IMG/VR virus record: IMGVR_UViG_3300033565_000026
Coordinates: 1-64,000 of that record
Direction: 5' to 3' (one strand)
Origin: a virus
Length of the DNA: 64,000 nt
In this document: positions 208-42,817 of the stretch, piece by piece
Numbering within the stretch: position 1 is the stretch's first letter
Layout of the letters: the number at the start of each line of letters is the position of its first letter
Notes under the pieces: model-generated
Told to the model about the DNA's origin: nothing
Databases searched by the model: none
The model's input: only the letters and a program-made list of their open reading frames with translations
Translations under genes and position numbers: made by a program

Positions 208-1524
208 ATGAGTGGGAAAAAGGTATATCTCGATAAAAAAGTAGATCAAGCGTTAGAAGAACGTCTTCATTTAATCTTTGAAGATTTTGATAATATTAGC
301 GTTTCTTTTTCAGGCGGGAAAGATAGTGGTGTCCTCCTTAATGCAGTTCTTGATTACAAAAGAACACATGGATACCCTCAGAAAATAGCAGTGTTCCATA
401 AGGACTACGAAGCACAATACACTAAAACAACAGAATATGTAACTCGGATGTTCGAGAACAATATTGATGATATAGAACCATATTGGTTCTGTGTCCCCAT
501 GACTGTAAACTGTTCGGTTTCAATGCATCAGTTAACCTGGACTCCCTGGAATCCTGTTGAAAAAGATCTATGGGTAAGACCAATGCCAGATATTCCTTAT
601 GTGATTTCATTAGAACATAACAACATTCCGCCATTTTACAAAATGGCAATGAATGACGAAGCTCTTTACGAAGCATATGGTAAATGGTATGCAAAGACGC
701 ACCCAGGTAAATCAATCGTACTGCTCGGACTTAGAGCCGATGAATCACTTAATAGATATTCAGCCATCACTAACGAGTACAAAGTATTATATAAAAACCA
801 ACACTGGACACGAACAGCAGGTAAGGATTACTATGTAGGGAGTCCGATTTATGATTTTGACGTTCAAGATGTTTGGGTAATGAATGGAAAAAGGAATTAC
901 GATTATAATAAATTATATGATTTATATGCAAAAGCAGGTTTAACTCTAGCTCAAATGAGGGTCGCTAGTCCGTATCATATAAGCGGAAGAGCTACACTTA
1001 ATTTATACAGAATAATTGATCCTGAAATATGGGCTAGACTTGTAGGAAGAGCGCAGGGAGTTAACTTTTCGGCTATCTATGGAGGGACTAAAGCATTAGG
1101 ATTCAGAGAAACAAAGCTTCCTAAAGGGCATACGTGGGAAAGCTACACGAAAATGCTATTATCCACACTTCCAGAGGATACAAGAAATCATTATATTAGA
1201 ATTTTTAAAGTTTCGATAAAAGTATGGACTGAGAAAGGAGCAGTAGTAGACGATGAAGCAATCAAAGAACTGGAATCTTTGAAATATCCAATTGAAGTAG
1301 TCGGAACTTCTACAAGATCAAAACTGAAAAAGAATGATGTAAAGTTCGGAAATATACCGGATGACACTGACAACATTAAAAGTACAATAGATATCCCATC
1401 ATGGAAAAGAATGGCATTTACTATAATAAAAAATGATCATGTTTGTAAAAGTATGGGATTTGCACCTACCAAAGAACAGAGTGAAAGGGCAAAGATGATT
1501 ATTGAAAAATACAGAGGGATCTAA
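208..1524 (+). CDS. PAPS-reductase / PP-loop family protein, IbrA-like (paralog 1)
   Basis: 438 aa with the PP-loop motif SFSGGKDSGV near the N-terminus. The C-terminal block HTWESY..PSWKRM..IKNDHVCKSMGF is shared with the paralog at 2873-4123. A ParB-like gene follows immediately, as in IbrA/IbrB pairs. Confidence 0.8.
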   Translation: MSGKKVYLDKKVDQALEERLHLIFEDFDNISVSFSGGKDSGVLLNAVLDYKRTHGYPQKIAVFHKDYEAQYTKTTEYVTRMFENNIDDIEPYWFCVPMTVNCSVSMHQLTWTPWNPVEKDLWVRPMPDIPYVISLEHNNIPPFYKMAMNDEALYEAYGKWYAKTHPGKSIVLLGLRADESLNRYSAITNEYKVLYKNQHWTRTAGKDYYVGSPIYDFDVQDVWVMNGKRNYDYNKLYDLYAKAGLTLAQMRVASPYHISGRATLNLYRIIDPEIWARLVGRAQGVNFSAIYGGTKALGFRETKLPKGHTWESYTKMLLSTLPEDTRNHYIRIFKVSIKVWTEKGAVVDDEAIKELESLKYPIEVVGTSTRSKLKKNDVKFGNIPDDTDNIKSTIDIPSWKRMAFTIIKNDHVCKSMGFAPTKEQSERAKMIIEKYRGI

Positions 1525-2499
1525 ATGGAACTAATAGAGAAAATGATGGATTTGGTTTTAGAAGTCGAAAAACTTGATTTATATGACCGTGTTGAATTCA
1601 TAAACGAAGCTAAGAGACTACTACACAAAATAAGCCCTCTAAAGAACGAACCTGTTGATGTGGTTCAATGGGTAAAAAGTTATGATGTCGTAGCTAATGA
1701 TTATAATCCTAATCGTGTTGCACCCCCCGAAATGAAGTTACTTGAACTCTCTATAAAAGAAGATGGATACACTCAGCCGATTGTAACATACTATGATGAA
1801 GCAAAAGGGAGATACATAATTGTAGATGGATTCCACAGGTCAAGAGTGGGGCAGGAAGTTTCGGAGATCAATAAACGTGTAGACGGGTATCTCCCTATTG
1901 TAGTGATTGATAAGCCCATCGGCGATAGAATTGCATCTACGATAAGGCACAATCGTGCAAGAGGCACACATGACATTGATTTAATGAGTGATCTTGTAGC
2001 AGAACTTCACAGACTTGGAAAAACCGATCACTGGATAGCTAAAAATCTCGGAATGGATGCGGATGAAGTAATGAGACTAAAACAGATAGGAGGGCTTGCT
2101 GACCTATTTAGAGATAAGGATTTTAGTAGATCTTGGGATGTAGAAGAGTGTGTGGATATAAAAGACGAAATCGAAGAATTAAAAATGGACATCCTGATAA
2201 AAGATGGAAAGGCAAAAATTACAGAATCACAACTTGAAGACATTGTAAGAGCGTGGGATCCAGAAAAAGATTCAGTCGGTGAACTTAGAGATGCATTTGA
2301 AGCATGGGGGAGTTTTAAGAACGCTTTTGAAATACCAAGTTTGGAAGAAGCTATAGTACATCTGCCAATTTCTAATGAATTTGAAGAATTTATCGAGAAC
2401 ATGTCAGTTAAAAAGAGGAAATCCATAGTTACCTGTGATAATGACGGGTTCTGTTTAATGGAAGAAGGAACTGAGATAAAACATATTTCAGAGATTTAA
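1525..2499 (+). CDS. ParB/sulfiredoxin-like nuclease-domain protein, IbrB-like
   Basis: 324 aa with the ParB-type motifs IVDGFHRSRV and TIRHNRARG. The ATG abuts the upstream stop (TAAATG). Confidence 0.7.
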   Translation: MELIEKMMDLVLEVEKLDLYDRVEFINEAKRLLHKISPLKNEPVDVVQWVKSYDVVANDYNPNRVAPPEMKLLELSIKEDGYTQPIVTYYDEAKGRYIIVDGFHRSRVGQEVSEINKRVDGYLPIVVIDKPIGDRIASTIRHNRARGTHDIDLMSDLVAELHRLGKTDHWIAKNLGMDADEVMRLKQIGGLADLFRDKDFSRSWDVEECVDIKDEIEELKMDILIKDGKAKITESQLEDIVRAWDPEKDSVGELRDAFEAWGSFKNAFEIPSLEEAIVHLPISNEFEEFIENMSVKKRKSIVTCDNDGFCLMEEGTEIKHISEI

Positions 2500-2511
2500 G
2501 ATGGAGGGTAA

Positions 2512-2937
2512 ATGAAAAGAATTTACCACCCTTATACTTTATGGGAAGAATATGGAGCTGGAATGTGGAGATCAGTTTCGAAGGAAGATGAAGAAAGTTA
2601 TATACAAAAGGCTATAGAATTTACTGGAAATTATGAATTATATGGAAAATGGATGTTAAAAGTTATAGAGACGTGGAAATATTCATGTGAACATAATCTT
2701 ACAGATACAAGCATTAATAGACAGGCGTGGGTAGGTCACGCAGCATGTTGTTTAGCGATTGGATGCCCTGAACACATCACAAGAAGGGCGTGGCACTTTC
2801 TCACACAAGAACAGCAAGATAAAGCAAATAAAAAAGCTGATGAAGCTATATTAAGATGGGAGAACAAACAAAATGAAAAAATACCTCAAGGAAAATGTAT
2901 TAGAAGCAGCACAAAACAGGGTATCCTGGGCATTTGA
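2512..2937 (+). CDS. Hypothetical protein, Trp/Cys-rich
   Basis: 141 aa, preceded by GGAGGG, and containing HAACCLAIGCPEH. It sits between the ParB-like gene and the second PAPS reductase and overlaps the next gene by 65 nt. Confidence 0.55.
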   Translation: MKRIYHPYTLWEEYGAGMWRSVSKEDEESYIQKAIEFTGNYELYGKWMLKVIETWKYSCEHNLTDTSINRQAWVGHAACCLAIGCPEHITRRAWHFLTQEQQDKANKKADEAILRWENKQNEKIPQGKCIRSSTKQGILGI

Positions 2938-4123
2938 TTCATTTGAAAGGATTTATGTTTCGTTTTCAGGTGGAAAGGACAGCACCGTATTAACTCATCT
3001 TGTAATGGAAGAAGCAATAAAAAGGAACCGGAAAGTGGGATTAATGTTTATTGATTGGGAATGTCAATATAATCTCACTATCCAGCATGTATCAGATATC
3101 TTCGAGCTATATAAAGATATCATTGTCCCATATTGGATATCAATCCCTCTTAGAACTGTTAATGGATGTTCACAATTTGAACCTGAGTGGACATGTTGGG
3201 ATGAAAATAAAAAAGAGTTATGGATAAGGAATAAACCTAAAAATTCAATAAAAAAAGGATCAATCTTTCCATTTTTTTATGAGGGAATAACTTTTGAAGA
3301 GTTCACTCCCAAATTTACAGAGTGGTACTCGGAAGGAAAAACATGTTGTAATTTTATAGGTATCCGTGCGCAAGAGTCGTATAATAGATTTAGAGCAGTT
3401 ACAAAAAATAAAGAATTTGGATATACCCATATAACCAAAATAACTGATAACTGTTATAGTGCGTACCCTCTTTATGATTGGGAAACAGAAGATATCTGGA
3501 CTTATTACGCAAAAACGGATAAGATTTACAATAAAGTGTATGACAGGATGTATAAGGCAGGTTTAACTATTCATCAGATGCGGATAGATGAACCTTTTGG
3601 ATGCACTCAGAGAAAAGGGCTGTGGTTATATCAAGTTATTGAGCCGAATACGTGGCGCAAGATGGTTTTAAGAGTAGCCGGAGCAAACACCGGAGCATTA
3701 TATTCAAAGGAACACGGCAACATCTTAGGAAATTATAAAGTTACGTTACCAAAAAATCATACGTGGAAAAGTTTTGCTAGTCTATTATTGGATACAATGC
3801 CAGATAAAACGAGTGAACATTATAAAAATAAAATATCTACATATTGTATTTCCTGGCAGAAAAGAGGTTATCCTGAAGGAATTCCAGAAGAAGCAGATTT
3901 AAAATTTGAATCTATGGGAAAAGCACCGAGTTGGAGGCAAATAGTAAAAACATTGCTAAAAAACGATTATTGGTGTATTGGGTTAGGGTTCTCACCCTCA
4001 CGAACAAGAGAATATAGAAAATGTATGAATCATTTGGATAATGTATCTCCTTACATGAGGTATAATCATGAAACAAACGCAAATACAAACATTTCACAGT
4101 TCTGCGAAACCCCCGCTTCCTAA
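2873..4123 (+). CDS. PAPS-reductase / PP-loop family protein, IbrA-like (paralog 2)
   Basis: 416 aa with SFSGGKDSTVL at the same offset as paralog 1. It shares the HTWKSF..PSWRQI..LKNDYWCIGLGF C-terminal block. Confidence 0.8.
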   Translation: MKKYLKENVLEAAQNRVSWAFDSFERIYVSFSGGKDSTVLTHLVMEEAIKRNRKVGLMFIDWECQYNLTIQHVSDIFELYKDIIVPYWISIPLRTVNGCSQFEPEWTCWDENKKELWIRNKPKNSIKKGSIFPFFYEGITFEEFTPKFTEWYSEGKTCCNFIGIRAQESYNRFRAVTKNKEFGYTHITKITDNCYSAYPLYDWETEDIWTYYAKTDKIYNKVYDRMYKAGLTIHQMRIDEPFGCTQRKGLWLYQVIEPNTWRKMVLRVAGANTGALYSKEHGNILGNYKVTLPKNHTWKSFASLLLDTMPDKTSEHYKNKISTYCISWQKRGYPEGIPEEADLKFESMGKAPSWRQIVKTLLKNDYWCIGLGFSPSRTREYRKCMNHLDNVSPYMRYNHETNANTNISQFCETPAS

Positions 4124-4751
4124 AGGGTATTCTCTATCTCATATACTCACATATCGTAAATGTGAGTATAAATTCTTACTTTCTTTTATTTATAAAGTTA
4201 AAGTTGAGACTAAATATAAACCATTGTTGGAAGGCTCAAATGTCCATGAACTTATCTCAAAAAGAGAATTTATATCAGAGAATAAAGATACACAAAAACT
4301 ATTAGATGTTGCCTATAATTTCTTACAGAATATGCCGGAAAATCCAGTTTTTGAAACAGATTATACTGATAAGAATAACCCTGGAACTTTTAAAGGAAAG
4401 GTGTTTGATGTGCCGTTCTTAGCAACATTTGATGTTCATTGGACAGAAGGAATCGGAGTAGATTGGAAAACGAGTGAACAGAAAGAGAAGTATCACGGAG
4501 AGTATGAGATCCAGGCGTATCTCCTGAATGAATTATTCAAACAGAAATACGGATATCAACTGAAAAAATTCTATTTTGTATTTTTGAAAGATGGATCAAC
4601 ATATCAAGCTCAGTCAATCTATAAGAATGCAGTAAGAACAAGAACCGAAACTAAAATTAAGAATGTATTAGACGGAATAAAACGCCTAGAATTCAAAAAG
4701 AAAATGTCTTTTGCTTGTGAATGGTGCGATTATCAAGGGATGTGTATATAA
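4068..4751 (+). CDS. Cas4/RecB-like PD-(D/E)XK nuclease with a 4-Cys cluster
   Basis: 227 aa. It has an N-terminal Cys (YRKCEYKF), FDVHW..VDWKT (D..DxK), QAYLL, and a C-terminal CEWCDYQGMC (Cx2Cx5C). Confidence 0.7.
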   Translation: MKQTQIQTFHSSAKPPLPKGYSLSHILTYRKCEYKFLLSFIYKVKVETKYKPLLEGSNVHELISKREFISENKDTQKLLDVAYNFLQNMPENPVFETDYTDKNNPGTFKGKVFDVPFLATFDVHWTEGIGVDWKTSEQKEKYHGEYEIQAYLLNELFKQKYGYQLKKFYFVFLKDGSTYQAQSIYKNAVRTRTETKIKNVLDGIKRLEFKKKMSFACEWCDYQGMCI

Positions 4752-5083: not shown

Positions 5084-5090
5084 TTTTTTT
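5084..5090 (+). terminator. Oligo-T tract after the first gene run
   Basis: A T7 run follows the TAA of 4867-5076. The same TTTTTTTGCTG string recurs at 5901-5911. Archaeal terminators are typically oligo-T tracts. Confidence 0.4.
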
Positions 5091-5125
5091 GCTGTTGACA
5101 AGCGATAACTATAAATATTATAAGT

Positions 5126-5153
5126 TCCATTGTAGTATATACAGCAAGATAAA
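5126..5153 (+). promoter_or_regulatory. Repeated promoter-proximal element, copy 2
   Basis: Identical to 1-28 and preceded by the TATA-like CTATAAATATTATAA. Relative to copy 1 there is a 16-nt internal duplication (TAAGGACTAAGATAAA) before the AGAGGCTGAAAATAATG start region. Confidence 0.5.
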
Positions 5154-5183
5154 TAAGGACTAAGATAAAAGAGGCTGAAAATA

Positions 5184-5897: not shown

Positions 5898-5941
5898 TAC
5901 TTTTTTTGCTGATTACTACAGTTAATTATTTATATGATTAG

Positions 5942-5958
5942 TTCTATTGTAGTATATA
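5942..5958 (+). promoter_or_regulatory. Repeated promoter-proximal element, copy 3 (partial)
   Basis: TTCTATTGTAGTATATA matches copies 1 and 2 at 16 of 17 positions. It is preceded by TTTTTTTGCTG and the TATA-like TTATTTATATGA, as for copy 2. Confidence 0.45.
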
Positions 5959-10024: not shown

Positions 10025-10258
10025 ATGATAGAAAACATCTCAGATTCACAAGAAAAAATATTCAAACTAAATATAAAAGAAGCAATGGGACTTTCAAAAG
10101 TTCAAAACGTAAATAGAAAATGTAAATCATGTAATAAACCATTCGCGCTTATGGGCATTCTCCCAGGTCAGAAGGTAATCTGTCCTGAATGTGGTGCGTC
10201 TTATCTTGTGAAGTATGAAATCTCATTTAAGGCCGTGCTGGAAGGGCTGGAAGCATGA
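10025..10258 (+). CDS. Zinc-ribbon protein
   Basis: 77 aa with CKSCNKPF..CPECGASY. The ATG lies 8 nt after the GGAG of TCGGAGCTAA (10011-10020). Confidence 0.65.
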   Translation: MIENISDSQEKIFKLNIKEAMGLSKVQNVNRKCKSCNKPFALMGILPGQKVICPECGASYLVKYEISFKAVLEGLEA

Positions 10259-10668
10259 AAACATGTAACCATTGCCATCAAGAATTAGACGAATCCCAAT
10301 TCAACAAATGGAAAAATAATCCGGATGGCTCAGGACTCGCAAAACGTTGCCGTGAGTGTTCCCATGAATTGAATAAGAAATACCATCTTAAACATTTTAC
10401 TGAAATACAGGAAAAGAGGAAGGAATATTTTAAGGAACGCTACACTCAGAAAGTGCGAAAGCCTCATGTAAAGCACAAGCCACATAAGAAAACTCCTTTT
10501 GTGCCACCTGCTAATTCATCTCTAGTACGTTGTAAATGTTGGCATCCAATCTATATTCTACCAGGGCAAAGGTCTGTATTATGTGAAAAATGCAGGAATA
10601 CACTAAAAATATTAAATGTACCCAAGAGTAACAGGCACAGATCAGGGATTATCTTGAGGGTGATATGA
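10255..10668 (+). CDS. Basic zinc-ribbon protein
   Basis: 137 aa. The N-terminal CNHCHQELDESQF..DGSG..KRCRECS resembles the N-terminus of 12836-13624. A second Cys pair reads CKCW..CEKC. The start overlaps the upstream stop. Confidence 0.6.
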   Translation: MKTCNHCHQELDESQFNKWKNNPDGSGLAKRCRECSHELNKKYHLKHFTEIQEKRKEYFKERYTQKVRKPHVKHKPHKKTPFVPPANSSLVRCKCWHPIYILPGQRSVLCEKCRNTLKILNVPKSNRHRSGIILRVI

Positions 10669-10917: not shown

Positions 10918-11343
10918 ATGGCAGTCCAGAAAAAAAAGAAGCAACAAAAAAAGGTCATAAACTATCAAGTATGGAACTGGACTCCAAAACGCAAACAAGC
11001 TGCAATAATGATGTCCACAGGCTTAAAATCACAAACAGAAATAGCCGCTGAGTTGAGTATTGCAGAAGAAACCGTGTCCAGGTGGAAACAGTATCCAGAT
11101 TTTATGAGAGAAGTTGAACGCCTCACATTCCAACAAGAAAACGCAACGAGAGCAGGAATTGTACGTCAAGCTCTTAAAGCTATGAATGTTAAAAAGAATC
11201 ATGTCGCTGAAGACAGAAGCACTTTTTTAGATTATTTAGAATTTATTGTCAAAATTATTCCTCCTGATATTAAAGAGGACAATGATAAACTGAAATCATT
11301 GACGGATGCCATTATGAGTAGTGCAAAAATGATAGGAAAATAA
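10918..11343 (+). CDS. terS: Terminase small subunit (HTH type)
   Basis: 141 aa with a basic N-terminus and the HTH segment TEIAAELSIAEETVSRWK. It lies immediately upstream of the large terminase (TAAATG junction). Confidence 0.6.
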   Translation: MAVQKKKKQQKKVINYQVWNWTPKRKQAAIMMSTGLKSQTEIAAELSIAEETVSRWKQYPDFMREVERLTFQQENATRAGIVRQALKAMNVKKNHVAEDRSTFLDYLEFIVKIIPPDIKEDNDKLKSLTDAIMSSAKMIGK

Positions 11344-12621
11344 ATGGTCTTCACTCCTGGCATTTTCTCCGAAAAACAAATTGACGTAATGGCTAACTGC
11401 ACAGCCACAATAAACTTTTTAGAAGGTGCTGTCCGATCAGGTAAAACCATTGCTTCTATTATTGCATTTGTTAATCTCGTTTTGAATGGTCCCTCTGGTA
11501 ATGTCCTCCTAATTGGAAAAACAGATACCACCCTTTATAGGAATATCCTGCAACCCATTGAGGAAATATATGGATCTACTAATTTTAAGTTTAGCAGGGG
11601 TTCCCGGGAAGGTATGATTTTTGGGAGAAAGTTTTACACTGCTGGAGCCAATGACGAGAGAGCATATACAAAAATTCAAGGGTTAACTCTCGCACTTGCT
11701 TATGGCGATGAAGTTGCAGCATGGCCTGAATCCTTCTTCCAGATGTTAATATCTCGATTATCTGAGCCAGGAGCACGCTTTATAGGGTCCTTGAATCCTG
11801 AAGGTCCTTATCATTGGCTTAAAACTAAATTCCTAGATAGAGAAAACGAACTATCTTTGAAATCCTGGCATTTTACTCTTGAAGATAACCAGAATTTAGA
11901 GCCGGCTTACGTTGAGAATTTGAAGAAATTTTACACGGGATTATTTTATCGAAGGTACATTTTAGGGGAATGGTGTTTAGCAGAGGGGACTGTATATGAT
12001 ATGTTCGATGAATCTCTACATGTAAAAGAGGTAACTAATGATATATGGAGAAATATAATAATCAAACATATATCTGTGGACTACGGGACCTCAAATCCAA
12101 CAGTTTTCCAACTGTGGGGCAACGATGGAAGAACACGTTACCTAAAAAAAGAATATTACTATGATTCAAGGGCAAAAGGAAGACAAAAAACTGATGCTGA
12201 GTACGCACAAGATTTAATTAATTTCATTGGTTCAGAAGATATTCAATCGGTAATTGTAGATCCATCGGCAGCCTCTTTTAAATTGGAATTATCTAAACGT
12301 GGGTTATATGTGATTGATGCTGATAATAACGTGTTAGACGGGATTAGAGATGTATCCAATGAACTCTCTCAGGGTAAGATATGGATTGACCCCTCTTGCA
12401 TCAATTTAATTCAAGAAATGGGCGCTTACATATGGGATACACGGGCAGGAGAAAGAGGGGAAGATAAACCAATGAAACAGTATGACCATTCAGAAGATGC
12501 CGCCCGTTATTATATACGTACAATTCCGGTGTACTATTACGAATCAGATTTCAATGAAAAAACAGATAATTATAATTCTCCTTTGGATTATCGGGGAGTT
12601 TATGAAAGCAGTTACTATTGA
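11344..12621 (+). CDS. terL: Terminase large subunit
   Basis: 425 aa with Walker A GAVRSGKT and Walker B-like LAYGDEVA. Nuclease-half acidic motifs are SVDYG and DHSEDAARYY. Size and layout match PBSX-type terminases. Confidence 0.85.
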   Translation: MVFTPGIFSEKQIDVMANCTATINFLEGAVRSGKTIASIIAFVNLVLNGPSGNVLLIGKTDTTLYRNILQPIEEIYGSTNFKFSRGSREGMIFGRKFYTAGANDERAYTKIQGLTLALAYGDEVAAWPESFFQMLISRLSEPGARFIGSLNPEGPYHWLKTKFLDRENELSLKSWHFTLEDNQNLEPAYVENLKKFYTGLFYRRYILGEWCLAEGTVYDMFDESLHVKEVTNDIWRNIIIKHISVDYGTSNPTVFQLWGNDGRTRYLKKEYYYDSRAKGRQKTDAEYAQDLINFIGSEDIQSVIVDPSAASFKLELSKRGLYVIDADNNVLDGIRDVSNELSQGKIWIDPSCINLIQEMGAYIWDTRAGERGEDKPMKQYDHSEDAARYYIRTIPVYYYESDFNEKTDNYNSPLDYRGVYESSYY

Positions 12622-12674
12622 CTCTTTTTAACTCACAGTTAAGTATATGTATGATATGCTCTATATACATATAC

Positions 12675-12824
12675 ATGGTAAAAATACAACAGAATAATCA
12701 AACATTAGCTCTTTTTGTACAGATTCCTAAAGCAATTGCTACAGCTAAAAGCTTGAAGAAAGGACAAGAAGTTGACTTTTTGATTGATGAAAAAGGAAGA
12801 ATCGTTCTTGATATCAAAAAATGA
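12675..12824 (+). CDS. AbrB/SpoVT-like small DNA-binding protein
   Basis: The internal ATG at 12675 gives 49 aa. ALFVQIPKAIA..LKKGQEVDFLIDEKGRIVLDI fits the swapped-hairpin pattern. Confidence 0.45.
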   Translation: MVKIQQNNQTLALFVQIPKAIATAKSLKKGQEVDFLIDEKGRIVLDIKK

Positions 12825-12835
12825 AGGTGTCGTAA

Positions 12836-13624
12836 ATGGCACAAAAAACATTAGAGGATTTCGTTGATTTGTCAGAAAATCAAAAAAAATGCTCAATCTG
12901 TAATGAATTTAAGCCACTAGATAAATTTTGTAAGGATAAACACAGACCAGACGGAAAAGCTACAAAATGCAAAGACTGTGTTAAAATTTATAATGAAATG
13001 ACTCGTGAAAGAAGGCACAGATTAAGAAGAGAAAATCCTGAAAAATATAGAAACAACGAACGAAATTATTATACATCTCATATCGAATCGTGTAAAGCTT
13101 CAAGAAAGAGATATTATGAGTTGAACAGAGAAAGCGCAATAGAATATAAAAAGAAATATTATCAAGATAACAGGGATAAATTCATAAATATACAGAGAAG
13201 GTATTACAACACACATCGAAAAGAGTGTATCTTAAAATCTAAAATATATACACAAGAAAACATAGAGAAGGTAAAACAGAGAAGAAACGATTGGGCAAAA
13301 TCTTCAAGTGGGAAAGTTATAACACGTCTTCATAGGCTCCGCCATATCCTCAAATCTAGAAATCCAATAAATGAATACTTCTTAGATTCCCATTATCATC
13401 ATATAATGTGCTATTCAAACAGGACAATAGAAAACGACATCGGGATATACATACCATCTAACATCCACAAATCTATATGGCATAACAGTAAAACAGGACA
13501 AAACATGGACAAAATAAATAAACTAGCAATCGAATGGTATATTTCAACATGTGAAAATCCAGAAGAAGGATTAAAAAAGATAGGATTTAATTCAATAAGT
13601 GAATTTAAGGATAGATATCCTTAA
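12836..13624 (+). CDS. Putative HNH endonuclease with N-terminal zinc ribbon and basic RxYY repeats
   Basis: 262 aa. The N-terminus reads CSICNEFKPLDKF..DGKATKCKDC. The centre has tandem R-x-YY/KKYY repeats. The C-terminal HYHHI..N..SNIHKSIWHN is HNH-like. An HNH gene next to terminase is a common phage arrangement. Confidence 0.5.
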   Translation: MAQKTLEDFVDLSENQKKCSICNEFKPLDKFCKDKHRPDGKATKCKDCVKIYNEMTRERRHRLRRENPEKYRNNERNYYTSHIESCKASRKRYYELNRESAIEYKKKYYQDNRDKFINIQRRYYNTHRKECILKSKIYTQENIEKVKQRRNDWAKSSSGKVITRLHRLRHILKSRNPINEYFLDSHYHHIMCYSNRTIENDIGIYIPSNIHKSIWHNSKTGQNMDKINKLAIEWYISTCENPEEGLKKIGFNSISEFKDRYP

Positions 13625-13625
13625 C

Positions 13626-13634
13626 TTTTTTTTT
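13626..13634 (+). terminator. Oligo-T tract
   Basis: A T9 run lies immediately after the TAA of 12836-13624. Confidence 0.4.
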
Positions 13635-13640
13635 AAATTA

Positions 13641-13691
13641 GAAAACTACTCCTCTCTCGATTACAGAGGAGTTTATGAAGGAAATTATTAA
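13641..13691 (+). pseudogene. Relic 3' end of a second, diverged large-terminase allele
   Basis: It translates to ENYSSLDYRGVYEGNY-stop, against DNYNSPLDYRGVYESSYY-stop at the end of terL (12565-12621). Differences include synonymous codons (L ttg/ctc, R cgg/aga, Y tat/tac). There is no upstream ORF. Confidence 0.6.
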
Positions 13692-13826
13692 TATAATAAC
13701 ACTATTTTACACATATCTGATTGTGATCTATGGGTTTACCCTCCCCCATCTATTTTTTATATTATTATTTTCTATCTACATCCTGAGCCCAATTAAACAC
13801 CGCCGGAACACAAGAGAGGTAATACT

Positions 13827-14231
13827 ATGATAACTGCATATGATGTTTCTGCCGATCTTCTAATAAAAAACGTATCGCAACACTTGAAAATCGAAATTGA
13901 ACCGCCCACATGGGCATTTCATGTTAAAACAGGTCAACACAAAGAATTACAACCCGTTCAGCCGGATTGGTGGTATATTCGTTGTGCGTCAATCCTGAGA
14001 AAAATATATTTTCACGGTCCAATCGGAACGGAGAGGCTAAGATCTGCTTATGGTGGAAAAATAGATAACGGTGTAAAACCTGCACATCATGTTAAGGGCA
14101 GTGGGTCTATTGCTCGCAAGGCAGTCCAACAGCTTGAATCTGTTGGGTATCTTGAAAAATGTAGAGATGGTAGAAGAATTAGTGTGAAGGGTAGGAGTTT
14201 TTTAGATAGAATTGCTTTTGAGGCTGTTTAA
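13827..14231 (+). CDS. rps19e: Ribosomal protein eS19 (S19e)
   Basis: 134 aa. As I recall archaeal S19e, it is colinear with that family over the whole length: [55 protein letters not shown]. It has an SD (GAGAGGTAAT) and its own hairpin plus T-run. None of the usual ribosomal-operon neighbours are present. Confidence 0.85.
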
Positions 14232-14245
14232 GCCTCATCTTTTTT
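14220..14245 (+). terminator. Hairpin plus T-run after rps19e
   Basis: GAGGCT-GTTTA-AGCCTC overlaps the stop codon and is followed by TCTTTTTT. Confidence 0.45.
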
Positions 14246-14253
14246 CAACATCT

Positions 14254-14520
14254 TCATAAAATCAATCTCACATTAACCTTTTCATACAACCCGTCCCACA
14301 TTGACCCTATATACTCAATCCCATCATAAACAGGATAAATAGTATCGTGGATATAGTACCAAGGGGATTTAAAATCTGATACAATCGAATCGTTTGATAC
14401 TGCAATTTCTCCGGTGTAACTATTAAACATGTATTTAAATTGTTTTTTGCGTGCAATTTTTACTATTCTATTAGGATTACCTATATTTATTGTTTGTATT
14501 TCTAGTCCTATGTTTTCCAT
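14254..14520 (-). CDS. Hypothetical protein
   Basis: 88 aa, preceded by AAGGAGTG. The N-terminus MENIG resembles that of the neighbouring 14528-14674 ORF (MENIR). Confidence 0.55.
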   Translation of the reverse strand: MENIGLEIQTINIGNPNRIVKIARKKQFKYMFNSYTGEIAVSNDSIVSDFKSPWYYIHDTIYPVYDGIEYIGSMWDGLYEKVNVRLIL

Positions 14521-14527
14521 GTGTTAT

Positions 14528-14674
14528 TCACTCCTTCTTTCCTTCTCTATAAAAACAATCCCCTGATTTTGGGGGTTCTATATCCTTTAATTGGGAATTA
14601 GGCGTATATCCAGCACTTAATCCTAGTTTTTGGATCAGAATGTTTTGAGTGTTATCTACTCTAATGTTTTCCAT
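14528..14674 (-). CDS. Small hypothetical protein (48 aa)
   Basis: ATG at 14674 and TGA at 14528-14530. Below the track cut-off. Confidence 0.35.
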   Translation of the reverse strand: MENIRVDNTQNILIQKLGLSAGYTPNSQLKDIEPPKSGDCFYREGKKE

Positions 14675-14692
14675 GCTTTATTCCTCATTCAA

Positions 14693-14902
14693 TCATCTAT
14701 ATTCTTCAGGTAGTGAACTTTTCAAAATCTCAATCATATACTCTTTAGCTTCCTTACCCATATTCTGAATCACGTTTTTAAACTCTTCACTGTTATCAAT
14801 ATAAATTCCCTGCATTGCAGAAAGTGCGCCTTCGTTGTTTATTCTCATTGCTTCGCAAATTAGTTTCTGATCTTCTTGTGTGAATTCGGTAAATTGTTTC
14901 AT
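14693..14902 (-). CDS. Hypothetical protein
   Basis: The internal ATG at 14902 is preceded by AGGAGAACTAAAACA, a variant of the leader motif. This start also removes the overlap with 14907-15098. Confidence 0.55.
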   Translation of the reverse strand: MKQFTEFTQEDQKLICEAMRINNEGALSAMQGIYIDNSEEFKNVIQNMGKEAKEYMIEILKSSLPEEYR

Positions 14903-14906
14903 TGTT

Positions 14907-15098
14907 TTAGTTCTCCTGTGCATTATTTTCATATTTTTCTAATTTCAATTTTAATTTCTCGTTCTCTTCTGTTAATTTGTCATTTTCTGCCATAATTAGC
15001 CTTATTATAGTATCGTCTGTAGGATTTCCATACTTCGTTCCTCTGTTTCGTAAGTCCTTTACGGTAAATTCATTTATCCTAATCTGTTTTAGTGACAC
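14907..15098 (-). CDS. Small DNA-binding-like protein with a leucine-zipper tail
   Basis: 63 aa with a GTG start. The ..DDTIIRLIMAENDKLTEENEKLKLKLEK tail is similar to that of 39811-40050. It is divergent from repeat A. Confidence 0.45.
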   Translation of the reverse strand: MSLKQIRINEFTVKDLRNRGTKYGNPTDDTIIRLIMAENDKLTEENEKLKLKLEKYENNAQEN

Positions 15099-15163: not shown

Positions 15164-15244
15164 ACAAGTTATTTATACTACTTCTTACATATAGAATAGT
15201 ACACAAGGGCGAAATGCCCTGATATATAAAGGAGATAATAAATT
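15164..15244 (+). promoter_or_regulatory. Duplicated promoter/5'UTR module, copy A
   Basis: About 80 nt that align with 29241-29324 at roughly 85-90 percent identity. It has a TATA-like ATTTATACTAC, a conserved hairpin GGGC-GAAAT-GCCC, then GGAGA and the ATG. Confidence 0.6.
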
Positions 15245-16608: not shown

Positions 16609-16714
16609 TATTGAATTGCCAATGTAACTTTATTTTTTACATGATGTTTAAACATCTGTTCTTACATTGGCAATCAAAACCGGTAGTTATATATACGTTC
16701 ATTGGCAATTAATG
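16609..16714. repeat. ORB-like repeats upstream of orc1/cdc6 (3 copies)
   Basis: 16609-16628 is inverted; 16661-16678 and 16697-16714 are direct. All share the core ACATTGGCAAT of the consensus GTTACATTGGCAATTGAATA. Confidence 0.65.
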
Positions 16715-16740: not shown

Positions 16741-17970
16741 GTGGAATTATCAAGGAAAATAAGCCAATTCTATTCTAAACCCTCGGTGTTCAGAGACAAA
16801 GACGTATTAAAAAAAGGGCATCATCCACAGTCATTAGATGAAGTCCTTCACAGAGATGAAGTAATTAATAAATATGTAACTGTTTTACAGGAAGCTATCA
16901 AAGGGAAAGTTCCAGATAACCTGTTTATATATGGAACATTTGGAACTGGAAAAACGATGTTAGCGAGATTGATTACGTCTGAGATAGCTATGGCCGCAGA
17001 ACAGTTAGGAAATAGTGTAATTCCAATTTATATCTATTGCGAAACTGTGAGTGCTCCAAGCCCTCTAATGCAGTTTATTAATCAATCTATCATAGAAAAA
17101 CTACATGGAGTTAATAAACTTGTAGGAATATCGAAAGCCAAAAACTTTGATTATTTTTATGAATTGGTAGAAGAGGCAAAAGTGCCAATTATACTTATTT
17201 TTGATGAAATTGACAAACTCAAAGAACCTGACATTATAAATCAAATTTCGAGAATAAAGGAGTGTGGATTTACAAAACGCAATGTTTGTATTATCGGAAT
17301 AACCAACGACACTAATTTTTATAATAATCTTAATGGAAGGACAAAAAGCATAATAGGACAGAATGAATTATTTGTGCCTCCTTATGATGCGGATGAGCTT
17401 ATAGATATCTTGAATTTACGAGCTAAACAGGCATTTATAAACGACTCATTAGATGAAGTTGTAATTCCCCTATGTGCTGCTTTTGGTGCTCAAGAGAATG
17501 GGGATGCTAGGACAGCAATAGATCTACTCAGGACAGCCGGTGACCTCGCAGATCAAAGAGATAGTAGGATAGTAGAAGAATGTGACGTGAGAGCCGCAAA
17601 AGGCGGGATGGAATTAAACAGACAGCTTGAAGTTGTAAAAGGCTTGCCCACTCAAACAAAAAGCGTTCTTTTGGCATGTCTCTTAAAATATAAGAAAACT
17701 GGAAATGCATTAGAGACTAATGAGGTATATCCAATATACTCAAAAATATGCGAGATAACTTCATTAGATCCCGTTAAAACGAGGAGATTTAATGATTACA
17801 TAGGGGAATTAAACACACTAGGAATTATGTCCGTAAACAAGATCTCAAGAGGGAGGAAGAAAGGAGTTTACAACGCAATCAGACTGCTTGTAGAAACAGA
17901 TTCATTAGAAGAGATTATATTGCAGGATGATAGGTTTGAAGGATTTAGAAGAGGGAAAGATGAACTCTGA
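16741..17970 (+). CDS. cdc6: Orc1/Cdc6 replication initiator
   Basis: 409 aa with a GTG start after AGGTGAAAAC. It has Walker A GTFGTGKT, Walker B ILIFDEID and sensor-like GITND. The GDARTAIDLLR motif and a C-terminal winged-helix segment are typical of archaeal Orc1/Cdc6. Confidence 0.9.
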   Translation: MELSRKISQFYSKPSVFRDKDVLKKGHHPQSLDEVLHRDEVINKYVTVLQEAIKGKVPDNLFIYGTFGTGKTMLARLITSEIAMAAEQLGNSVIPIYIYCETVSAPSPLMQFINQSIIEKLHGVNKLVGISKAKNFDYFYELVEEAKVPIILIFDEIDKLKEPDIINQISRIKECGFTKRNVCIIGITNDTNFYNNLNGRTKSIIGQNELFVPPYDADELIDILNLRAKQAFINDSLDEVVIPLCAAFGAQENGDARTAIDLLRTAGDLADQRDSRIVEECDVRAAKGGMELNRQLEVVKGLPTQTKSVLLACLLKYKKTGNALETNEVYPIYSKICEITSLDPVKTRRFNDYIGELNTLGIMSVNKISRGRKKGVYNAIRLLVETDSLEEIILQDDRFEGFRRGKDEL

Positions 17971-17982: not shown

Positions 17983-18217
17983 TATTCAATTGCCAATGTA
18001 ACCAAGAAACTACTTGAGTGCTCTAAAAATAAAAAGCATTTAGCTTAATAATAAAAAAGCATTGTGACTTAATATGAAAGTTATACTATATATACTTAAC
18101 TATTACAAAATAAAATGTGTATTTCCAATAAATAAAATTTAATGTTACATTGGCAATTGAATAACTAAATAACTAGGGTTAATATGTTTATGGCTGTTAC
18201 ATTGGCAATTGAATAAC
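17983..18217. repeat. ORB-like repeats and AT-rich putative unwinding region downstream of orc1/cdc6
   Basis: An inverted copy lies at 17983-18002. Two identical direct copies, GTTACATTGGCAATTGAATAAC, lie at 18144-18165 and 18196-18217. About 140 bp of very AT-rich DNA separates the inverted and direct copies. Confidence 0.65.
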
Positions 18218-19276: not shown

Positions 19277-21880
19277 TTAATAAACCTCCATTTGATCTGC
19301 AACCGTTTCAAACCGATCTGAATTTACGGTTTCACGGTTTTGTAATTCATCTCTAATGAGTTCTAATTTACGAAGGAGTTTACCCCCCTGTGGAACCACA
19401 TAACAAGCAGCCCTAGACTTTAACATCTCGGTACATGTTGCACCTGCTCCGGTGAAAATAATATTCTTATAACCGGCATCCTCTGCACGGTCTTTCTTTT
19501 CATCGAAGTCTAATGTTCCATGTGTGTCTTGCCCTTCAAATTCCAGGCATCCAGAGTTATCAGGATCAATTAAGTTTCCATTCAGGCCTACTTCTCCCCA
19601 TGTAATATCGGCTAAATCATTGTGGTGGATCTGGAGGTTAGGGAAACAGCCCCACTGTTTCATTTTTCCGTATATAGCACATACAGCGCAGTAATGTTTC
19701 CAGCCCTCAACGCCTATTAAGTCCTGCTTTTTCTTCCCGTTCTTCGTTGTTCCCTCTACTTTCTTCACCTTCGAGGACTTCACCCATGCACTAATAGAAC
19801 CCGAACCGAAAGGATCAGTCGGATTATAATTTGCATATGCAGAAAGGTCTGCTTTACTAAAGTTTTCTACCCAGTAATCTATAAAGAATTCCTCGGTTTC
19901 TACGAAATCACGGAGAGTTTCTTCAATGATTAAACCGCTTTGAGTTGACGCTTTTTTAACGGTCATTTTGTTCTTTCCTAAGAGGGCATCTTCTACCATA
20001 TCCTCTAAAACTACATCCATATTTATTGCATAAGGATGTTTTAAGAAAAGACATATGCCCCGCCCTTCCTCCAGCAGCCTCTCCCTATGTTCTTCCTTGA
20101 GGCTGAACACTTTATTAAACATATCAATTACAGAGTCCTTTAAGTTGCAGAGCAGGAATATGTTTGAACAGTTTGCTTTGATGAAATTAAGAGTATCAAT
20201 TCCGATCCCTTCGGGATCCTGTGTTGCAAAGATTGTAGTAATGAACGCACTCCTTGATTCTCGGAACATCTTTTCAATAAAAGGCTTTAGATTGTCTATT
20301 TTAAGGAGTTTAGCGCCTTCATCGAAAAATACATCTGTCCTTCTCTGTTCTACGTCCTCGGAGGAAAAGAACCGAGTGTTAATTATGCCCATCATAAGCA
20401 CGCTAAAGGCGTTCTGGAGGTTCAAAGATAGAGCAGATATATCTAATATAAGAAGGTCGTTATCAAGCTCTGGCGCGTTGTGGTTGTCTATCCAGTTAAG
20501 AGCGCATCCCTCAGTAGCTTCTATTGTGTCATATAAGAGAGCATTTAATGTAGGGTTAAATTTTGCAGTATTCAGGCCATCAATATAAGAATACCATTCT
20601 CCGAAGGAAGGCCATTCATCAGGATCAGCCCACTTATCAAGGTTTATTGCTCTTCCTTTCTTATCAACAAGTTCATGTTTTCGGTAAAGGTCCGCGAGAG
20701 TTTTTATAAACATTCCTTTTTTACGGCCTTTGAATGAGAGTCCAATCCATCCAGCCATAAAGCCTTTCAGGGTTTCATAGTGGTCTAATAGAGCTTTATC
20801 GTATGAATCCTGAGACGTACCCATCGTTTTAGGGTCATAAAATACCTGAAATGGATTAAAAGCATATTCAGGCATTCTAAGATGTTTCCCTTCAAACACA
20901 TTACAGAAGTTCTTATAATCAGTCCCTCCGCTTTTTTCATCTTTTGGCTGGAGGATAATAACCCTATGTCCTTTTGCCAAAGCTCTTGCCGCCCAAGTAC
21001 ATTCAAAAACCGTTTTACCGCTTCCGGTTTTCCCCATTATAAAGCTATGTCCCGCATCCTCTAAATTAAAATCCACTTTTACGGGTTTTCCAGTATCATC
21101 AATTCCAAGAATTATTCCGTCTTCAGGATATTGAGGATTAATAGCTCTGAGGGGCATCATTTTTGAAACTGTTTTCCCTGCAGTTGGTTGCAGTACATCA
21201 GGATCTATAAAGTTCGTTGGAAGGATGGATTTTATAACTCTTAATTGTCCATGCCTGGGGATTTCATATCTTATACCGCACTCTTCAAGAGTTCCTATGA
21301 TAGTATCAATAAGGGAATCAACATCTTTTTGAGTTTTCCCAAAAACCGCAGCGCATAACCCATAATTATAATAGTGATCTCTTCCATGAAATACGTTAGC
21401 TGTTGCCTTCTGTAATTCCTGGCCGTTCAGGCTGTTATACTGAGAGTTGATAGTCTGCTGTTCCCCGTTCTTCTGTTGCTCTTTTGACTGTTCAGTCTTT
21501 TCAATGGACTTCCCTAACATCTCAGCTTCTACGAGTGGATTGAGAGGAACCATTATATGCCCATAAATTATAGCAGCGTTTTCAGTTGCCGATATTTTAA
21601 TTAATTCGTCAACTGCTTTATCTGAAAAATCTTCATCATACCCCTTTCTTATATCCTGTCTCTTCGTTGTTTTCCCTATAATGAGAGCTTGCCCCCACAT
21701 CTTATTTACTTTTACATACCATCCATCCTTCGTGGCTTCGATGTCAGCAGGACACGCTAAAAATGAAAGGGTTTGAGTTCTCGCGGTCTTCCGGTCTAAC
21801 TGCTCTTTCTCCATCTGTTTTATTTCTCTCTCAACCTTCCAGCATTTCAATTTGTAATAGTTATTTAAAAAGAAATTCAC
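19277..21880 (-). CDS. VirB4/TrbE-like secretion ATPase with a C-terminal nuclease-like extension
   Basis: 867 aa. An N-terminal domain of about 270 aa precedes Walker A FIMGKTGSGKT, followed by VFFDEGAKLL and TTIFATQDP. The C-terminal 200 aa or so (EGWKHY..DLADITW..CLEFEGQ) shows a weak E..D..ExE/Q PD-(D/E)XK-like pattern. Membrane-protein genes are co-oriented upstream. Confidence 0.6.
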   Translation of the reverse strand: MNFFLNNYYKLKCWKVEREIKQMEKEQLDRKTARTQTLSFLACPADIEATKDGWYVKVNKMWGQALIIGKTTKRQDIRKGYDEDFSDKAVDELIKISATENAAIIYGHIMVPLNPLVEAEMLGKSIEKTEQSKEQQKNGEQQTINSQYNSLNGQELQKATANVFHGRDHYYNYGLCAAVFGKTQKDVDSLIDTIIGTLEECGIRYEIPRHGQLRVIKSILPTNFIDPDVLQPTAGKTVSKMMPLRAINPQYPEDGIILGIDDTGKPVKVDFNLEDAGHSFIMGKTGSGKTVFECTWAARALAKGHRVIILQPKDEKSGGTDYKNFCNVFEGKHLRMPEYAFNPFQVFYDPKTMGTSQDSYDKALLDHYETLKGFMAGWIGLSFKGRKKGMFIKTLADLYRKHELVDKKGRAINLDKWADPDEWPSFGEWYSYIDGLNTAKFNPTLNALLYDTIEATEGCALNWIDNHNAPELDNDLLILDISALSLNLQNAFSVLMMGIINTRFFSSEDVEQRRTDVFFDEGAKLLKIDNLKPFIEKMFRESRSAFITTIFATQDPEGIGIDTLNFIKANCSNIFLLCNLKDSVIDMFNKVFSLKEEHRERLLEEGRGICLFLKHPYAINMDVVLEDMVEDALLGKNKMTVKKASTQSGLIIEETLRDFVETEEFFIDYWVENFSKADLSAYANYNPTDPFGSGSISAWVKSSKVKKVEGTTKNGKKKQDLIGVEGWKHYCAVCAIYGKMKQWGCFPNLQIHHNDLADITWGEVGLNGNLIDPDNSGCLEFEGQDTHGTLDFDEKKDRAEDAGYKNIIFTGAGATCTEMLKSRAACYVVPQGGKLLRKLELIRDELQNRETVNSDRFETVADQMEVY

Positions 21881-24441: not shown

Positions 24442-26256
24442 TTAGAAAGTAAATCTCAAAACATACAAACAGTATATAAAACAGATAAGTAAAATAACGG
24501 CAGCGTATTTGATTATTGGCTTAAATAACCCCTTATGTGGTTCAATTACTTTAATATCCATCGTAGGTTTAAAGCTGCCTTCGGGAGTGTTGCAGGTTAT
24601 TTTTATTTCATCAGGATCTACAAGGCCATCTAAATGAAAAGAATCTCCTGAGTGATATATTTCCCCTTCCCACAATGAACAGTTTGTATATATTACCGAT
24701 CTTCCCTGTTTTTCTCCAATCATAAGAGTGTGGAGTCCATTTTCCCCCTCAACTGATACTTCAACGCTTGTAAGCCCGTTAGAAGGTATATTGATAAGCG
24801 TATAAGGGTTACTATAATTATATTGTTCAATCGTTCCGGTGGCCTCCAACTGGCTTGCATCAACTCCAGAAGGTAAGATTATAGTATCATTCTCCTCTGC
24901 CTGCTCTACGAAATCCATTTTAAAAATATCAAAGATATTATCAAATTCTGTTGCTGATTGATCGGCCTCTTCTATCTCCTTATCTGAGAGAGGTTCAAAC
25001 CCGCCTGGAACATCCATTTCTGACGGCACAACTTCAGGACAACTCCACTCTTTACCGTTCCATGACCAACCCGAAGGGGTGCTCTGCTCTTTTGGATTTA
25101 TAAATATATCAGAATCAGAGAGCTTGCAGCCGTAAACGTTCCCCCCTACGTTATTATAATAACAGTTTTGAGAGCTTTCAACCTCTTGTTTTGAGATTGT
25201 ATTCTCAACTCCGAACCCTCCCTTTCCGGTTAGTTGGCTCGGTTTCGCGTTAGTGAATATATTAGCTGTTAGTTCTGCATCTGCGTATGTAGCCCATCCA
25301 GAATTAACAGCAAAAAAAACAACTGAGCCTCGGTAACATGAATCAAAAACGTTATTTTCAATTTTTGTATTATCATAACCGGAAGCAATTATTCCCCCTA
25401 CCCATGAAATACGATTATCCCCGCAATTCATAAAGAGATTATGATGCAACCATAACTCTTCATTACCTGAAGCTTTTCCAACCAACCAAAGCCCAGGACA
25501 GCAGGAAGATAATATAACATTTCCACAGACTTCTATATCTTCCATTGTACCTGTGTCATGCTGTATCTGGATAGCTGGACCTGCATCTCTCGGACCTTCC
25601 CACGAAATGATATTATTATAGATTCTTGCATGATTAACGTCTAAGAGTCTACACGCTGAATTAACAAGAGTCTTGATATTGTTGTGATGTACTTTAATAC
25701 CTGAAGATCTGAGAGCGAAGAAAACGTCATGTCCTCCCATTTCTCCGGTATTATACGAGAATTCTATGTTTTTGCAGCCGGATAGTCTCAGCCCATCCCC
25801 TAAATTATCATTAAAAGCGCATTTCGTAACCTTAATATTCTCACAATTTATTAAATATATAAAAGTCCCTATCTGGTTTCCATACGCTTTTTTGCCGCTC
25901 TGCTCAGGATGATTCGGGTTTGAATATCGAAGTGCGTACTTCTGATGATCCTGATTCCCCTCAAATCTAATCCCTGATATATTAATATTCTTTTGAGTTT
26001 TACCTGAGATCATAGGGATATTTTGAGGGATGCCGCATTCATCAGCGAACTTAAAAATAGTGCCTTTCTGCCCGCGTAATTCAATATTAGAAGGAAGTTC
26101 AAAAGAATTACTTATAGAGTATGTTTTAGCTTCCAATTCTATTATTTTATTACCATCTCCGCATAAACGAACAATTTCTTTTTCATCTCCTGCAAGAGCA
26201 TGACCCGATAACAAACATAATACTAATATTATAATAAAAGATCTTCTTAAATGCAT
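24442..26256 (-). CDS. Secreted right-handed beta-helix protein with a C-terminal membrane anchor
   Basis: 604 aa with a signal peptide and a C-terminal hydrophobic helix (AAVILLICFIYCLYVL). It has repeated N-x-I/V..N/G beta-helix turns and GDGLRLSG..MGGHDVFF. It is clearly paralogous to 31943-33298. Confidence 0.65.
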   Translation of the reverse strand: MHLRRSFIIILVLCLLSGHALAGDEKEIVRLCGDGNKIIELEAKTYSISNSFELPSNIELRGQKGTIFKFADECGIPQNIPMISGKTQKNINISGIRFEGNQDHQKYALRYSNPNHPEQSGKKAYGNQIGTFIYLINCENIKVTKCAFNDNLGDGLRLSGCKNIEFSYNTGEMGGHDVFFALRSSGIKVHHNNIKTLVNSACRLLDVNHARIYNNIISWEGPRDAGPAIQIQHDTGTMEDIEVCGNVILSSCCPGLWLVGKASGNEELWLHHNLFMNCGDNRISWVGGIIASGYDNTKIENNVFDSCYRGSVVFFAVNSGWATYADAELTANIFTNAKPSQLTGKGGFGVENTISKQEVESSQNCYYNNVGGNVYGCKLSDSDIFINPKEQSTPSGWSWNGKEWSCPEVVPSEMDVPGGFEPLSDKEIEEADQSATEFDNIFDIFKMDFVEQAEENDTIILPSGVDASQLEATGTIEQYNYSNPYTLINIPSNGLTSVEVSVEGENGLHTLMIGEKQGRSVIYTNCSLWEGEIYHSGDSFHLDGLVDPDEIKITCNTPEGSFKPTMDIKVIEPHKGLFKPIIKYAAVILLICFIYCLYVLRFTF

Positions 26257-33298: not shown

Positions 33299-33430
33299 AT
33301 ATAGCTCCGATTTGGGCAACCTTGCCGATAAAGAAAAAGTTGAATATAAAATATAAAGATAAAGATATATTTAGATATATCTAATTAAAAAAGTGAATAA
33401 GTTTTTATAAAAAAGAAGAATTTTAAAAGT

Positions 33431-41219: not shown

Positions 41220-41220
41220 A

Positions 41221-42807: not shown

Positions 42808-42817
42808 GGAGGGGAGC

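Follow-up and report, generated by a model that had tools for sequence, protein, structure and literature searches.

Ribosomal protein genes have long been regarded as a mark of cells, and the finding of one in the midst of viral DNA raises the question of whether it truly belongs to the virus, where it came from, and what it could do during infection. The gene in question encodes ribosomal protein eS19 (S19e) and lies on the plus strand, at positions 13827–14231, of a 64,000-nucleotide stretch of viral DNA (positions 1 to 64,000 of IMG/VR record IMGVR_UViG_3300033565_000026), hereafter referred to as the window. eS19 is an archaeal/eukaryotic-specific protein of the head of the small ribosomal subunit, and the human protein, the main Diamond-Blackfan anaemia gene, is needed for small-subunit maturation. 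An original prediction, made from the letters alone, described the gene as host-derived cargo of a mobile element that may tune ribosome assembly or translation during infection. The reading favoured here, with a probability of roughly 0.6, is that virus-made eS19 acts at the normal eS19 site of the host 30S subunit during infection and thereby aids the virus; we infer that the gene is expressed, that its product is incorporated and that the virus benefits.

The protein and its conserved residues

The open reading frame (ORF) begins with ATG, encodes 134 amino acids (aa) plus a stop codon, and matches the Pfam family Ribosomal_S19e (PF01090) with an E-value of 7.7e-53 and a score of 178.3 bits (cut-off 29.4 bits), a match far beyond chance. 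Positions 1–133 of the 137 of the model are covered, which corresponds to the complete domain, and the description of the gene as a full-length and intact S19e ORF is borne out by this result. The viral protein matches 74 eS19 sequences of the PDB, the top one being the eS19 chain from the 70S ribosome of Methanosarcina acetivorans (9o17_AV, E 8.8e-50), after which come Pyrococcus and Thermococcus proteins. The eS19 fold is a helical bundle around a central amphipathic helix, together with a beta-hairpin, and this is the fold predicted for the viral protein: when its AlphaFold2 model (mean predicted local distance difference test score, pLDDT, of 82.4) is compared with PDB folds, the best 50 matches listed are all eS19 chains, with template modelling (TM) scores of 0.74–0.81, and chain 9o17_AV is matched with a TM-score of 0.79.

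Conservation was examined against a set of 119 homologs, in which a column conserved to at least 90% was considered near-invariant. The viral protein keeps the family residue in 41 of the 42 near-invariant columns, as against 47 of the 92 other columns (Fisher p = 1e-8). Two basic patches of RPS19 have been defined by Gregory et al. 2007 (PMC2034476), and the yeast substitutions R57E, R63E, R102E and R122E, which concern both patches, prevent RPS19 from being incorporated into pre-40S particles (PMC2034476). The patch residues were mapped by hand, using the HMMER alignment of the Pyrococcus abyssi protein onto Table 2 and the text of that study, and all residues of patch A (P43, W48, R52, S55, R58) as well as all those of patch B (R97, K98, Q101, K111, G115, R116) are present in the viral protein, whose net charge of +8 and isoelectric point of 9.7 are normal for the family. 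Such conservation of residues would make a role in ribosome assembly or translation plausible.

The locus and the viral backbone around it

The features that surround the gene are the following.

10918–11343, plus strand: small-terminase-like helix-turn-helix protein (TerS), an ORF of the window
11344–12621, plus strand: intact large terminase (TerL), 425 aa; Pfam Terminase_6N, Terminase_3 and Terminase_3C
12618–13624, plus strand: cassette between the intact TerL end and the relic, with a 68-aa ORF and a 262-aa ORF (12836–13624)
13641–13691, plus strand: relic of the TerL 3' end, about 16 codons, translating to ..NYSSLDYRGVYEGNY and a stop
13754–13765, plus strand: AT-rich, TATA-box-like stretch (TTTTTATATTAT), candidate archaeal promoter of eS19 as judged from its letters
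13814–13820, plus strand: Shine-Dalgarno-like GAGAGGT, 6 nucleotides (nt) 5' of the eS19 ATG, putative in function
13827–14231, plus strand: eS19 gene (Pfam PF01090)
14219–14246, plus strand: terminator-like hairpin (TGAGGCT-GTTTA-AGCCTCA), then TCTTTTTT, from the terminator scan
14254–15098, minus strand: four small ORFs converging on eS19, two of which were scanned and gave no family match

A probable history of this locus can be read from the terminase gene. TerL shares 46% identity with phage TerL across 92% of its length, and is 63–78% identical to the TerL proteins of related viral and metagenomic contigs (IMG/VR, metagenomes). Its intact C-terminus, ..NYNSPLDYRGVYESSYY followed by the stop codon that ends at 12621, is copied by the relic, with an ungapped match at 10 of 18 residues, the maximum in 60 shuffles being 8. 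The stop codon of the relic ends at 13691, exactly 135 nt 5' of the eS19 ATG, and a terminase relic at this very distance, as originally proposed, is therefore upheld. The last 16 or so codons of TerL are duplicated (12570–12621 and 13641–13691), the two copies bracketing the 68-aa and 262-aa ORFs, with approximately 1.07 kb from the intact TerL end to the relic. The 262-aa protein is Zn-ribbon/endonuclease VII-like (PHROG 1035, endonuclease VII, 1.8e-9; PHROG 2340, endonuclease, 1e-8); a homolog lies at a different position in a related contig (L023), and no cassette of this type is present after TerL in three related contigs (L004, L006, L021). The cassette is probably a mobile (homing-type) endonuclease gene that inserted into the 3' end of TerL, duplicating that end. 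On this order of events eS19 would already have adjoined TerL before the cassette arrived and, since it would have lain 135 nt 3' of TerL prior to the insertion, it would be older in the genome than the cassette. A further ORF at 10255–10668 (137 aa) has a CxxC...CxxC N-terminus similar to that of the 262-aa ORF.

The gene was also predicted to carry its own Shine-Dalgarno sequence and a hairpin/T-run terminator, and both are found: GAGAGGT precedes the start codon, and a hairpin with a 7-bp stem (14219–14237) overlaps the stop codon and runs into the T-run given above, the terminator scan of the region having yielded 5 such sites against 0.9 expected. A run of nine T residues at 13626–13634, 3' of the gene that precedes eS19, suggests that the latter is transcribed separately. 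A 51-aa ORF (13675–13830) that overlaps the eS19 start by ATGA was considered as a translationally coupled partner and dropped; it is probably spurious, because its start falls within the TerL relic, in a different frame, and its product is a low-complexity, hydrophobic sequence. A leader or regulatory RNA within 13625–13840 was likewise rejected, the fold being no better than that of shuffled sequences (z = -0.39); a local hairpin at 13648–13672 falls within the TerL relic and is not a dedicated element. A sigma-70 promoter scan gave fewer matches than shuffles, with a consensus that is not meaningful for archaea.

Downstream, the small genes on the opposite strand that had been described are present, and one of them (14907–15098, minus strand) is kept at the equivalent place in a 75-kb relative. 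The genes that normally neighbour rps19e (dsDNA-binding protein, DUF7411, L31e, eIF6, LX, prefoldin and FtsY) are all lacking near 13827–14231 among the ORFs of the window, as had been claimed. They are present in two contigs of Methanosarcinaceae type (L001 and L002), the eS19 of the former, chromosome-type contig sharing 95% identity with its counterpart in Methanosarcina sp. MTP4; a third contig (L003) is too short to show all of them.

Whether both sides of the gene belong to one virus can be judged from a wider set of features.

16741–17970, plus strand: Orc1/Cdc6 replication initiator; Pfam Cdc6_lid and Cdc6_C
19277–21880, minus strand: 867-aa VirB4/TraG/HerA-like ATPase, a backbone gene common to relatives that brackets the variable region with eS19
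40197–58400, plus strand: head-tail module, including an HK97-like major capsid protein and a tape-measure protein
41842–42807, plus strand: HK97-like major capsid protein (MCP); PHROG 1650, major head protein, 1.2e-5
49348–52017, plus strand: tape-measure protein; PhageMin_Tail, 9.5e-44

With TerL, MCP and tape-measure protein all present, the virus appears to be a tailed archaeal virus of Caudoviricetes, HK97 type; the MCP weakly matches an HK97-like major head protein of a methanogen Caudoviricetes virus, and no portal protein was recognised among the ORFs of the window with Pfam and PHROGs. Homologs of both MCP (69%) and TerL (63%) lie on a single IMG/VR contig of 75,260 bp (UViG_3300025000_000077), which is collinear with the window over 6–21 kb (L006) and 31.9–48.6 kb (L014). 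Three loci (L004, L006 and L021) show TerS, TerL, convergent small genes and the minus-strand VirB4/HerA-like ATPase in the order of the window; in L004 genes for 289-aa and 362-aa proteins follow the ATPase, as they do in the window, and this ATPase/289-aa/362-aa block 3' of eS19 is common to L004, L005 and L006. The coordinate offsets with respect to the 75,260-bp relative, computed by hand, differ by approximately 74 kb, a unit near the lengths of both that relative and the 72,696-bp contig with the exact protein, and the two assemblies thus have the appearance of complete genomes that are circularly permuted with respect to each other. The window covers the greater part of the approximately 73-kb genome of an HK97-type tailed archaeal virus, and among the scanned ORFs only virus-type functions were recognised, with no housekeeping gene. 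The layout of this genome is unusual in that TerL (11344) lies some 30 kb from the capsid/tail module (41842), near the 867-aa ATPase block and Orc1; the same layout is kept in UViG_3300025000_000077.

These data bear directly on the scenario that would have undone the cargo interpretation, namely that eS19 is chromosomal host DNA caught between two integrated elements, or else the product of a chimeric assembly. No support for it was found beyond the hint of a higher overall GC content of the ORF, and its probability is next to negligible: the genes on either side are parts of one backbone, with collinear counterparts in the independent viral contig of 75 kb and in several contigs of lesser length, the third-codon GC content and codon usage match those of the virus, cellular genomes offer no sequence above 65% identity as a source for a chimera, and the TerL relic directly 5' of the gene ties it to the terminase locus. 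The prediction that eS19 is carried as cargo by a mobile element is thus confirmed, its two flanks being those of one virus whose backbone recurs in other viral contigs.

Origin, rarity and proposed role of the viral eS19

The exact viral protein was found on a single JGI contig. Its next best matches among 5.8 billion clusters are 63–65% identical, with sequences of Methanosarcinaceae type on top, and an exhaustive comparison with 1.84 billion representatives by HMMER yielded nothing closer than 65%. A neighbour-joining (NJ) tree, the phylogenetic check that had been recommended, places the viral protein beside the Methanosarcinales clade, but with a weak bootstrap, a sister group confined to that set being recovered in 7 of 100 replicates; it shares 5 of 21 states diagnostic of Methanosarcinaceae, some of which are rare elsewhere. 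Given such a bootstrap and so few diagnostic states, the naming of a donor by phylogeny was rejected. The gene is ultimately cellular, its nearest sequences being of Methanosarcinales type, so that the proposal of a host-derived gene holds for its remote origin; against a more immediate derivation stand the best cellular match of 63–65%, the weak bootstrap and a third-codon composition that is viral.

Regarding composition, the ORF had been described as less AT-rich than its surroundings, and its GC content is indeed 40.0%, against 31–32% in both flanks. The excess is confined to codon positions 1 and 2 (46%), while GC at the third position (GC3) is 27.4%, compared to a mean of 29.9% for the window's called ORFs and 53% in one rps19e gene of Methanosarcinaceae, and the codon log-likelihood falls within the range seen for the virus (z about -0.75). 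The comparison of GC content and codon usage suggested at the outset thus distinguishes the ORF from its flanks by overall GC, but finds it viral in GC3 and codon usage. A higher GC content as the mark of a recent capture from a host was consequently rejected: eS19 is not a recent capture, because its third-codon GC matches the virus. It has evolved for long under purifying selection in AT-rich DNA, and this DNA was most likely viral.

The same observations weigh on the idea of a neutral passenger without any role for the virus, acquired near the packaging site through illegitimate recombination. Such an origin would agree with the absence of eS19 from all sampled relatives and with its position in a variable region, beside a mobile endonuclease insertion. 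Nevertheless, silent sites that are fully ameliorated alongside conserved residues that are intact require a long residence under purifying selection, the Shine-Dalgarno and terminator sequences are also intact, and the identity to known cellular eS19 proteins does not exceed 65%; a passenger is highly unlikely.

That viruses are not known to carry eS19, as was the original impression, is in agreement with all collections and papers searched. No eS19 was found among INPHARED phage and archaeal-virus genomes, in PHROGs families, in BFVD viral structures (best E 0.087), in IMG/VR by a scan with the protein and conserved eS19 motifs, or in PLSDB plasmids, and a full-text search of the literature on eS19/S19e with viruses gave nothing relevant. 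As far as searched, this is the first eS19 in a virus. Phages are known to encode bS21, bL12, bS1, bL9 and other ribosomal proteins (Mizuno et al. 2019, PMC6375957). Ribosomal_S19e is among the 106 search profiles of that study, and the term occurs only in the profile list in the portion of the article consulted, which therefore reports no viral S19e match. In archaeal viruses, L21e is found in four hafunaviruses of haloarchaea (PMC8651126), bL19 in Kunpengvirus, a virus of Bathyarchaeia (PMC10541130), and S6e, L15, L15e and L30 in archaeal proviruses (PMC13573593).

Compared with cellular archaeal eS19 (M. acetivorans 9o17 chain AV; P. abyssi RPS19, 2v7f), the viral protein shares family, predicted fold and basic charge, and keeps all near-invariant residues but one as well as both basic patches. 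It differs by being 60–65% identical, by lacking the tail ..IPxLxKY and by the AT-rich silent sites of its gene, which lies outside the dsDNA-binding protein/L31e/eIF6/LX/prefoldin cluster. Like the ribosomal proteins of phages, it is encoded by a single accessory gene of a tailed double-stranded DNA virus, with presumed incorporation into host ribosomes; unlike those proteins, which are of bacterial type and carried by bacteriophages, it is archaeal/eukaryotic-specific. With L21e, bL19, S6e, L15, L15e and L30 it has in common an archaeal virus and a single translation-related accessory gene, but it differs from them in family and host group (here, a methanogen); where a subunit is stated, these proteins belong mostly to the large subunit, the S6e of proviruses being a small-subunit exception, and L21e is common to several related viruses, whereas eS19 is a singleton. 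Viral ribosomal proteins known to date are thus mostly bacterial-type proteins of phages, with a handful reported from archaeal viruses, and eS19 in a methanogen virus adds to them an archaeal/eukaryotic-specific protein of the small-subunit head. It is of note that a ribosomal protein marker on viral contigs can mislead marker-based binning and completeness estimates.

A precedent of a different nature is provided by the Methanoperedens plasmid HMp_v5, an extrachromosomal element of Methanosarcinales that carries uL16, apparently as the only copy of its host, which is thus made dependent on it (PMC9674854). By analogy, a host lineage without chromosomal rps19e could depend on the copy of a persistent or lysogenic element. 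The two cases are alike in that a ribosomal protein gene lies on an extrachromosomal element of Methanosarcinales (probably so for the viral gene); a 190-aa tyrosine recombinase (59155–59727) would allow a temperate or carrier lifestyle, and the residue set of eS19 would, by its conservation, be fully functional. Unlike uL16, however, eS19 is carried by a head-tail virus, with nothing to suggest that the host lost its own copy; the Methanosarcinaceae-type contigs for one close eS19 homolog (L001–L003) carry rps19e in the canonical cluster, relatives of the virus do without eS19, and the head-tail module is complete and of lytic type in genomes that look circularly permuted, i.e., packaged. Relocation of an essential gene is thus very improbable.

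The host of the virus is most probably a Methanosarcina-like methanogen, as suggested by several of its genes. Its Orc1/Cdc6 protein is 73–75% identical to proteins on contigs that share Orc1, the ATPase and a beta-helix protein, and 73% identical to one protein named from a metagenome-assembled genome (MAG) of Methanosarcina sp.; a scan of viral contigs for Orc1 gave nothing. Proteins of the window contain Disaggr_assoc and DUF1699 domains, both largely Methanosarcina-specific, and the closest eS19 sequences are those of Methanosarcinaceae; the weak match of the MCP to the head protein of a methanogen virus points to the same kind of host. The comparison of TerL with GTDB genomes gave distant matches only (40–46%, to an Iainarchaeum contig and two bacterial MAGs) and is uninformative on the host.

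In the proposed mechanism, the eS19 gene, located in a variable region 3' of TerL, would be expressed from its own signals, including a probable promoter, during infection. Cellular eS19 contacts rRNA helices h37–h41 on the 30S head (PMC9249338), and the viral protein would occupy this same site on the host subunit, where it may supplement or replace host eS19. Small-subunit assembly and translation could in this way be kept running, or be slightly remodelled, while host gene expression is compromised, and purifying selection would have kept the ribosome-contacting residues while silent sites drifted to viral composition.

A number of observations weigh against this proposal. The viral protein ends directly after its last helix, without the tail of approximately 13 residues (..IPxLxKY) that is present in all Methanosarcinales eS19 examined, and no tail remnant exists in frame 3' of its stop codon. 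Twelve of its residues are nearly unique in the family, among them N15 and I79 at positions that are usually basic, and its terminal branch in the NJ tree (0.30 substitutions per site) is the third longest of 120. No eS19 is present in the loci of TerL relatives (7 from IMG/VR and 42 from metagenomes), and the searched collections hold no second viral eS19 that would attest to conservation within a viral lineage. The host itself is inferred.

Some of these departures would fit a protein that was exapted, or is antagonistic, and whose binding partner would be pre-30S particles, rRNA or an eS19-recognising host factor, without any function as a ribosomal protein proper; by arresting the maturation of host ribosomes it could act as a dominant-negative, or it could be a decoy that engages a factor of host defence or hibernation. 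The tail is absent although all of the nearest cellular relatives have one, and in cellular eS19 this tail reaches into rRNA (PMC9249338); the nearly unique residues and the long branch point in the same direction, as does the position of this singleton gene in a hypervariable region, a place where one might expect accessory genes or genes for interaction with the host. Conversely, both patches needed for incorporation and 41 of 42 near-invariant positions are kept, the charge is normal, and the tail is typical of the family but not strictly defining: the commonest extension of homologs past the viral end is 13 residues (60 of 119), yet about 6% end within 3 residues of it, from which it follows that the tail is not obligatory. 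An antagonist is accordingly unlikely, if worth keeping in mind.

The normal-site reading remains preferred. In a bolder one, the tail-less protein would be more than a spare part: it would displace host eS19 on the 30S head and give rise to virus-modified ribosomes that, for instance, escape a hibernation or shutdown response of the host or favour viral mRNAs. This is quite unlikely; if true, it would be the first archaeal/eukaryotic-specific ribosomal protein used by a virus to reprogram archaeal translation. Methanosarcina is genetically tractable, and a cryo-electron microscopy structure of its ribosome exists (PDB 9o17), so that the entry of a tail-less viral eS19 into archaeal ribosomes is directly testable.

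Further observations on the viral genome

The Orc1 homolog P0125 is carried by four Methanosarcina-associated loci (L015–L018) that have Orc1, a beta-helix protein and an ATPase of 872 aa in common; tail genes are seen in L015 and L016 as well. The index lists P0125 for 45 collection blocks, with contigs of up to approximately 52.6 kb, and the virus group therefore seems common in methanogenic samples. In the window, Orc1/Cdc6 is flanked by 31-nt inverted repeats (16609–16639 and 18133–18163, 87% complementary), which may be origin-recognition boxes that mark the viral replication origin.

Two other families of repeats are found. A 55-nt repeat (89% identical) at 15175–15229 and 29256–29310 contains a GGGCGAAATGCCC hairpin and TATATAA, both copies being located just 5' of plus-strand gene blocks, and another repeat, promoter-like in character (…TCCATTGTAGTATATA…), occurs three times, at 1–33, 5084–5158 and 5901–5958. 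The two repeats probably serve the virus as shared promoter or regulatory elements. An 80-nt tRNA-Gly(TCC) called by ARAGORN at 39571–39650 on the minus strand was considered as an attachment site or viral tRNA and dropped, as Rfam recognised no tRNA there even at E <= 1; related viral loci hold no equivalent of it, and either the call is a false positive, or the element is tRNA-like and very atypical.

Six beta-helix/disaggregatase-related/NosD-like proteins are encoded in the window, three on the minus strand (24442–26256, 29634–30470 and 31943–33319) and three on the plus strand (43346–45793, 52021–56052 and 57729–58400), and could be alternative receptor-binding or depolymerase proteins; the small tyrosine recombinase mentioned above, encoded on the minus strand, could act as an integrase or an invertase. 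Finally, the region 208–4123 contains two paralogous PAPS-reductase and DUF3440 genes with a ParB-like gene between them, followed by a PD-(D/E)XK nuclease gene (4068–4751), a group that is possibly a DNA-modification or anti-restriction module.

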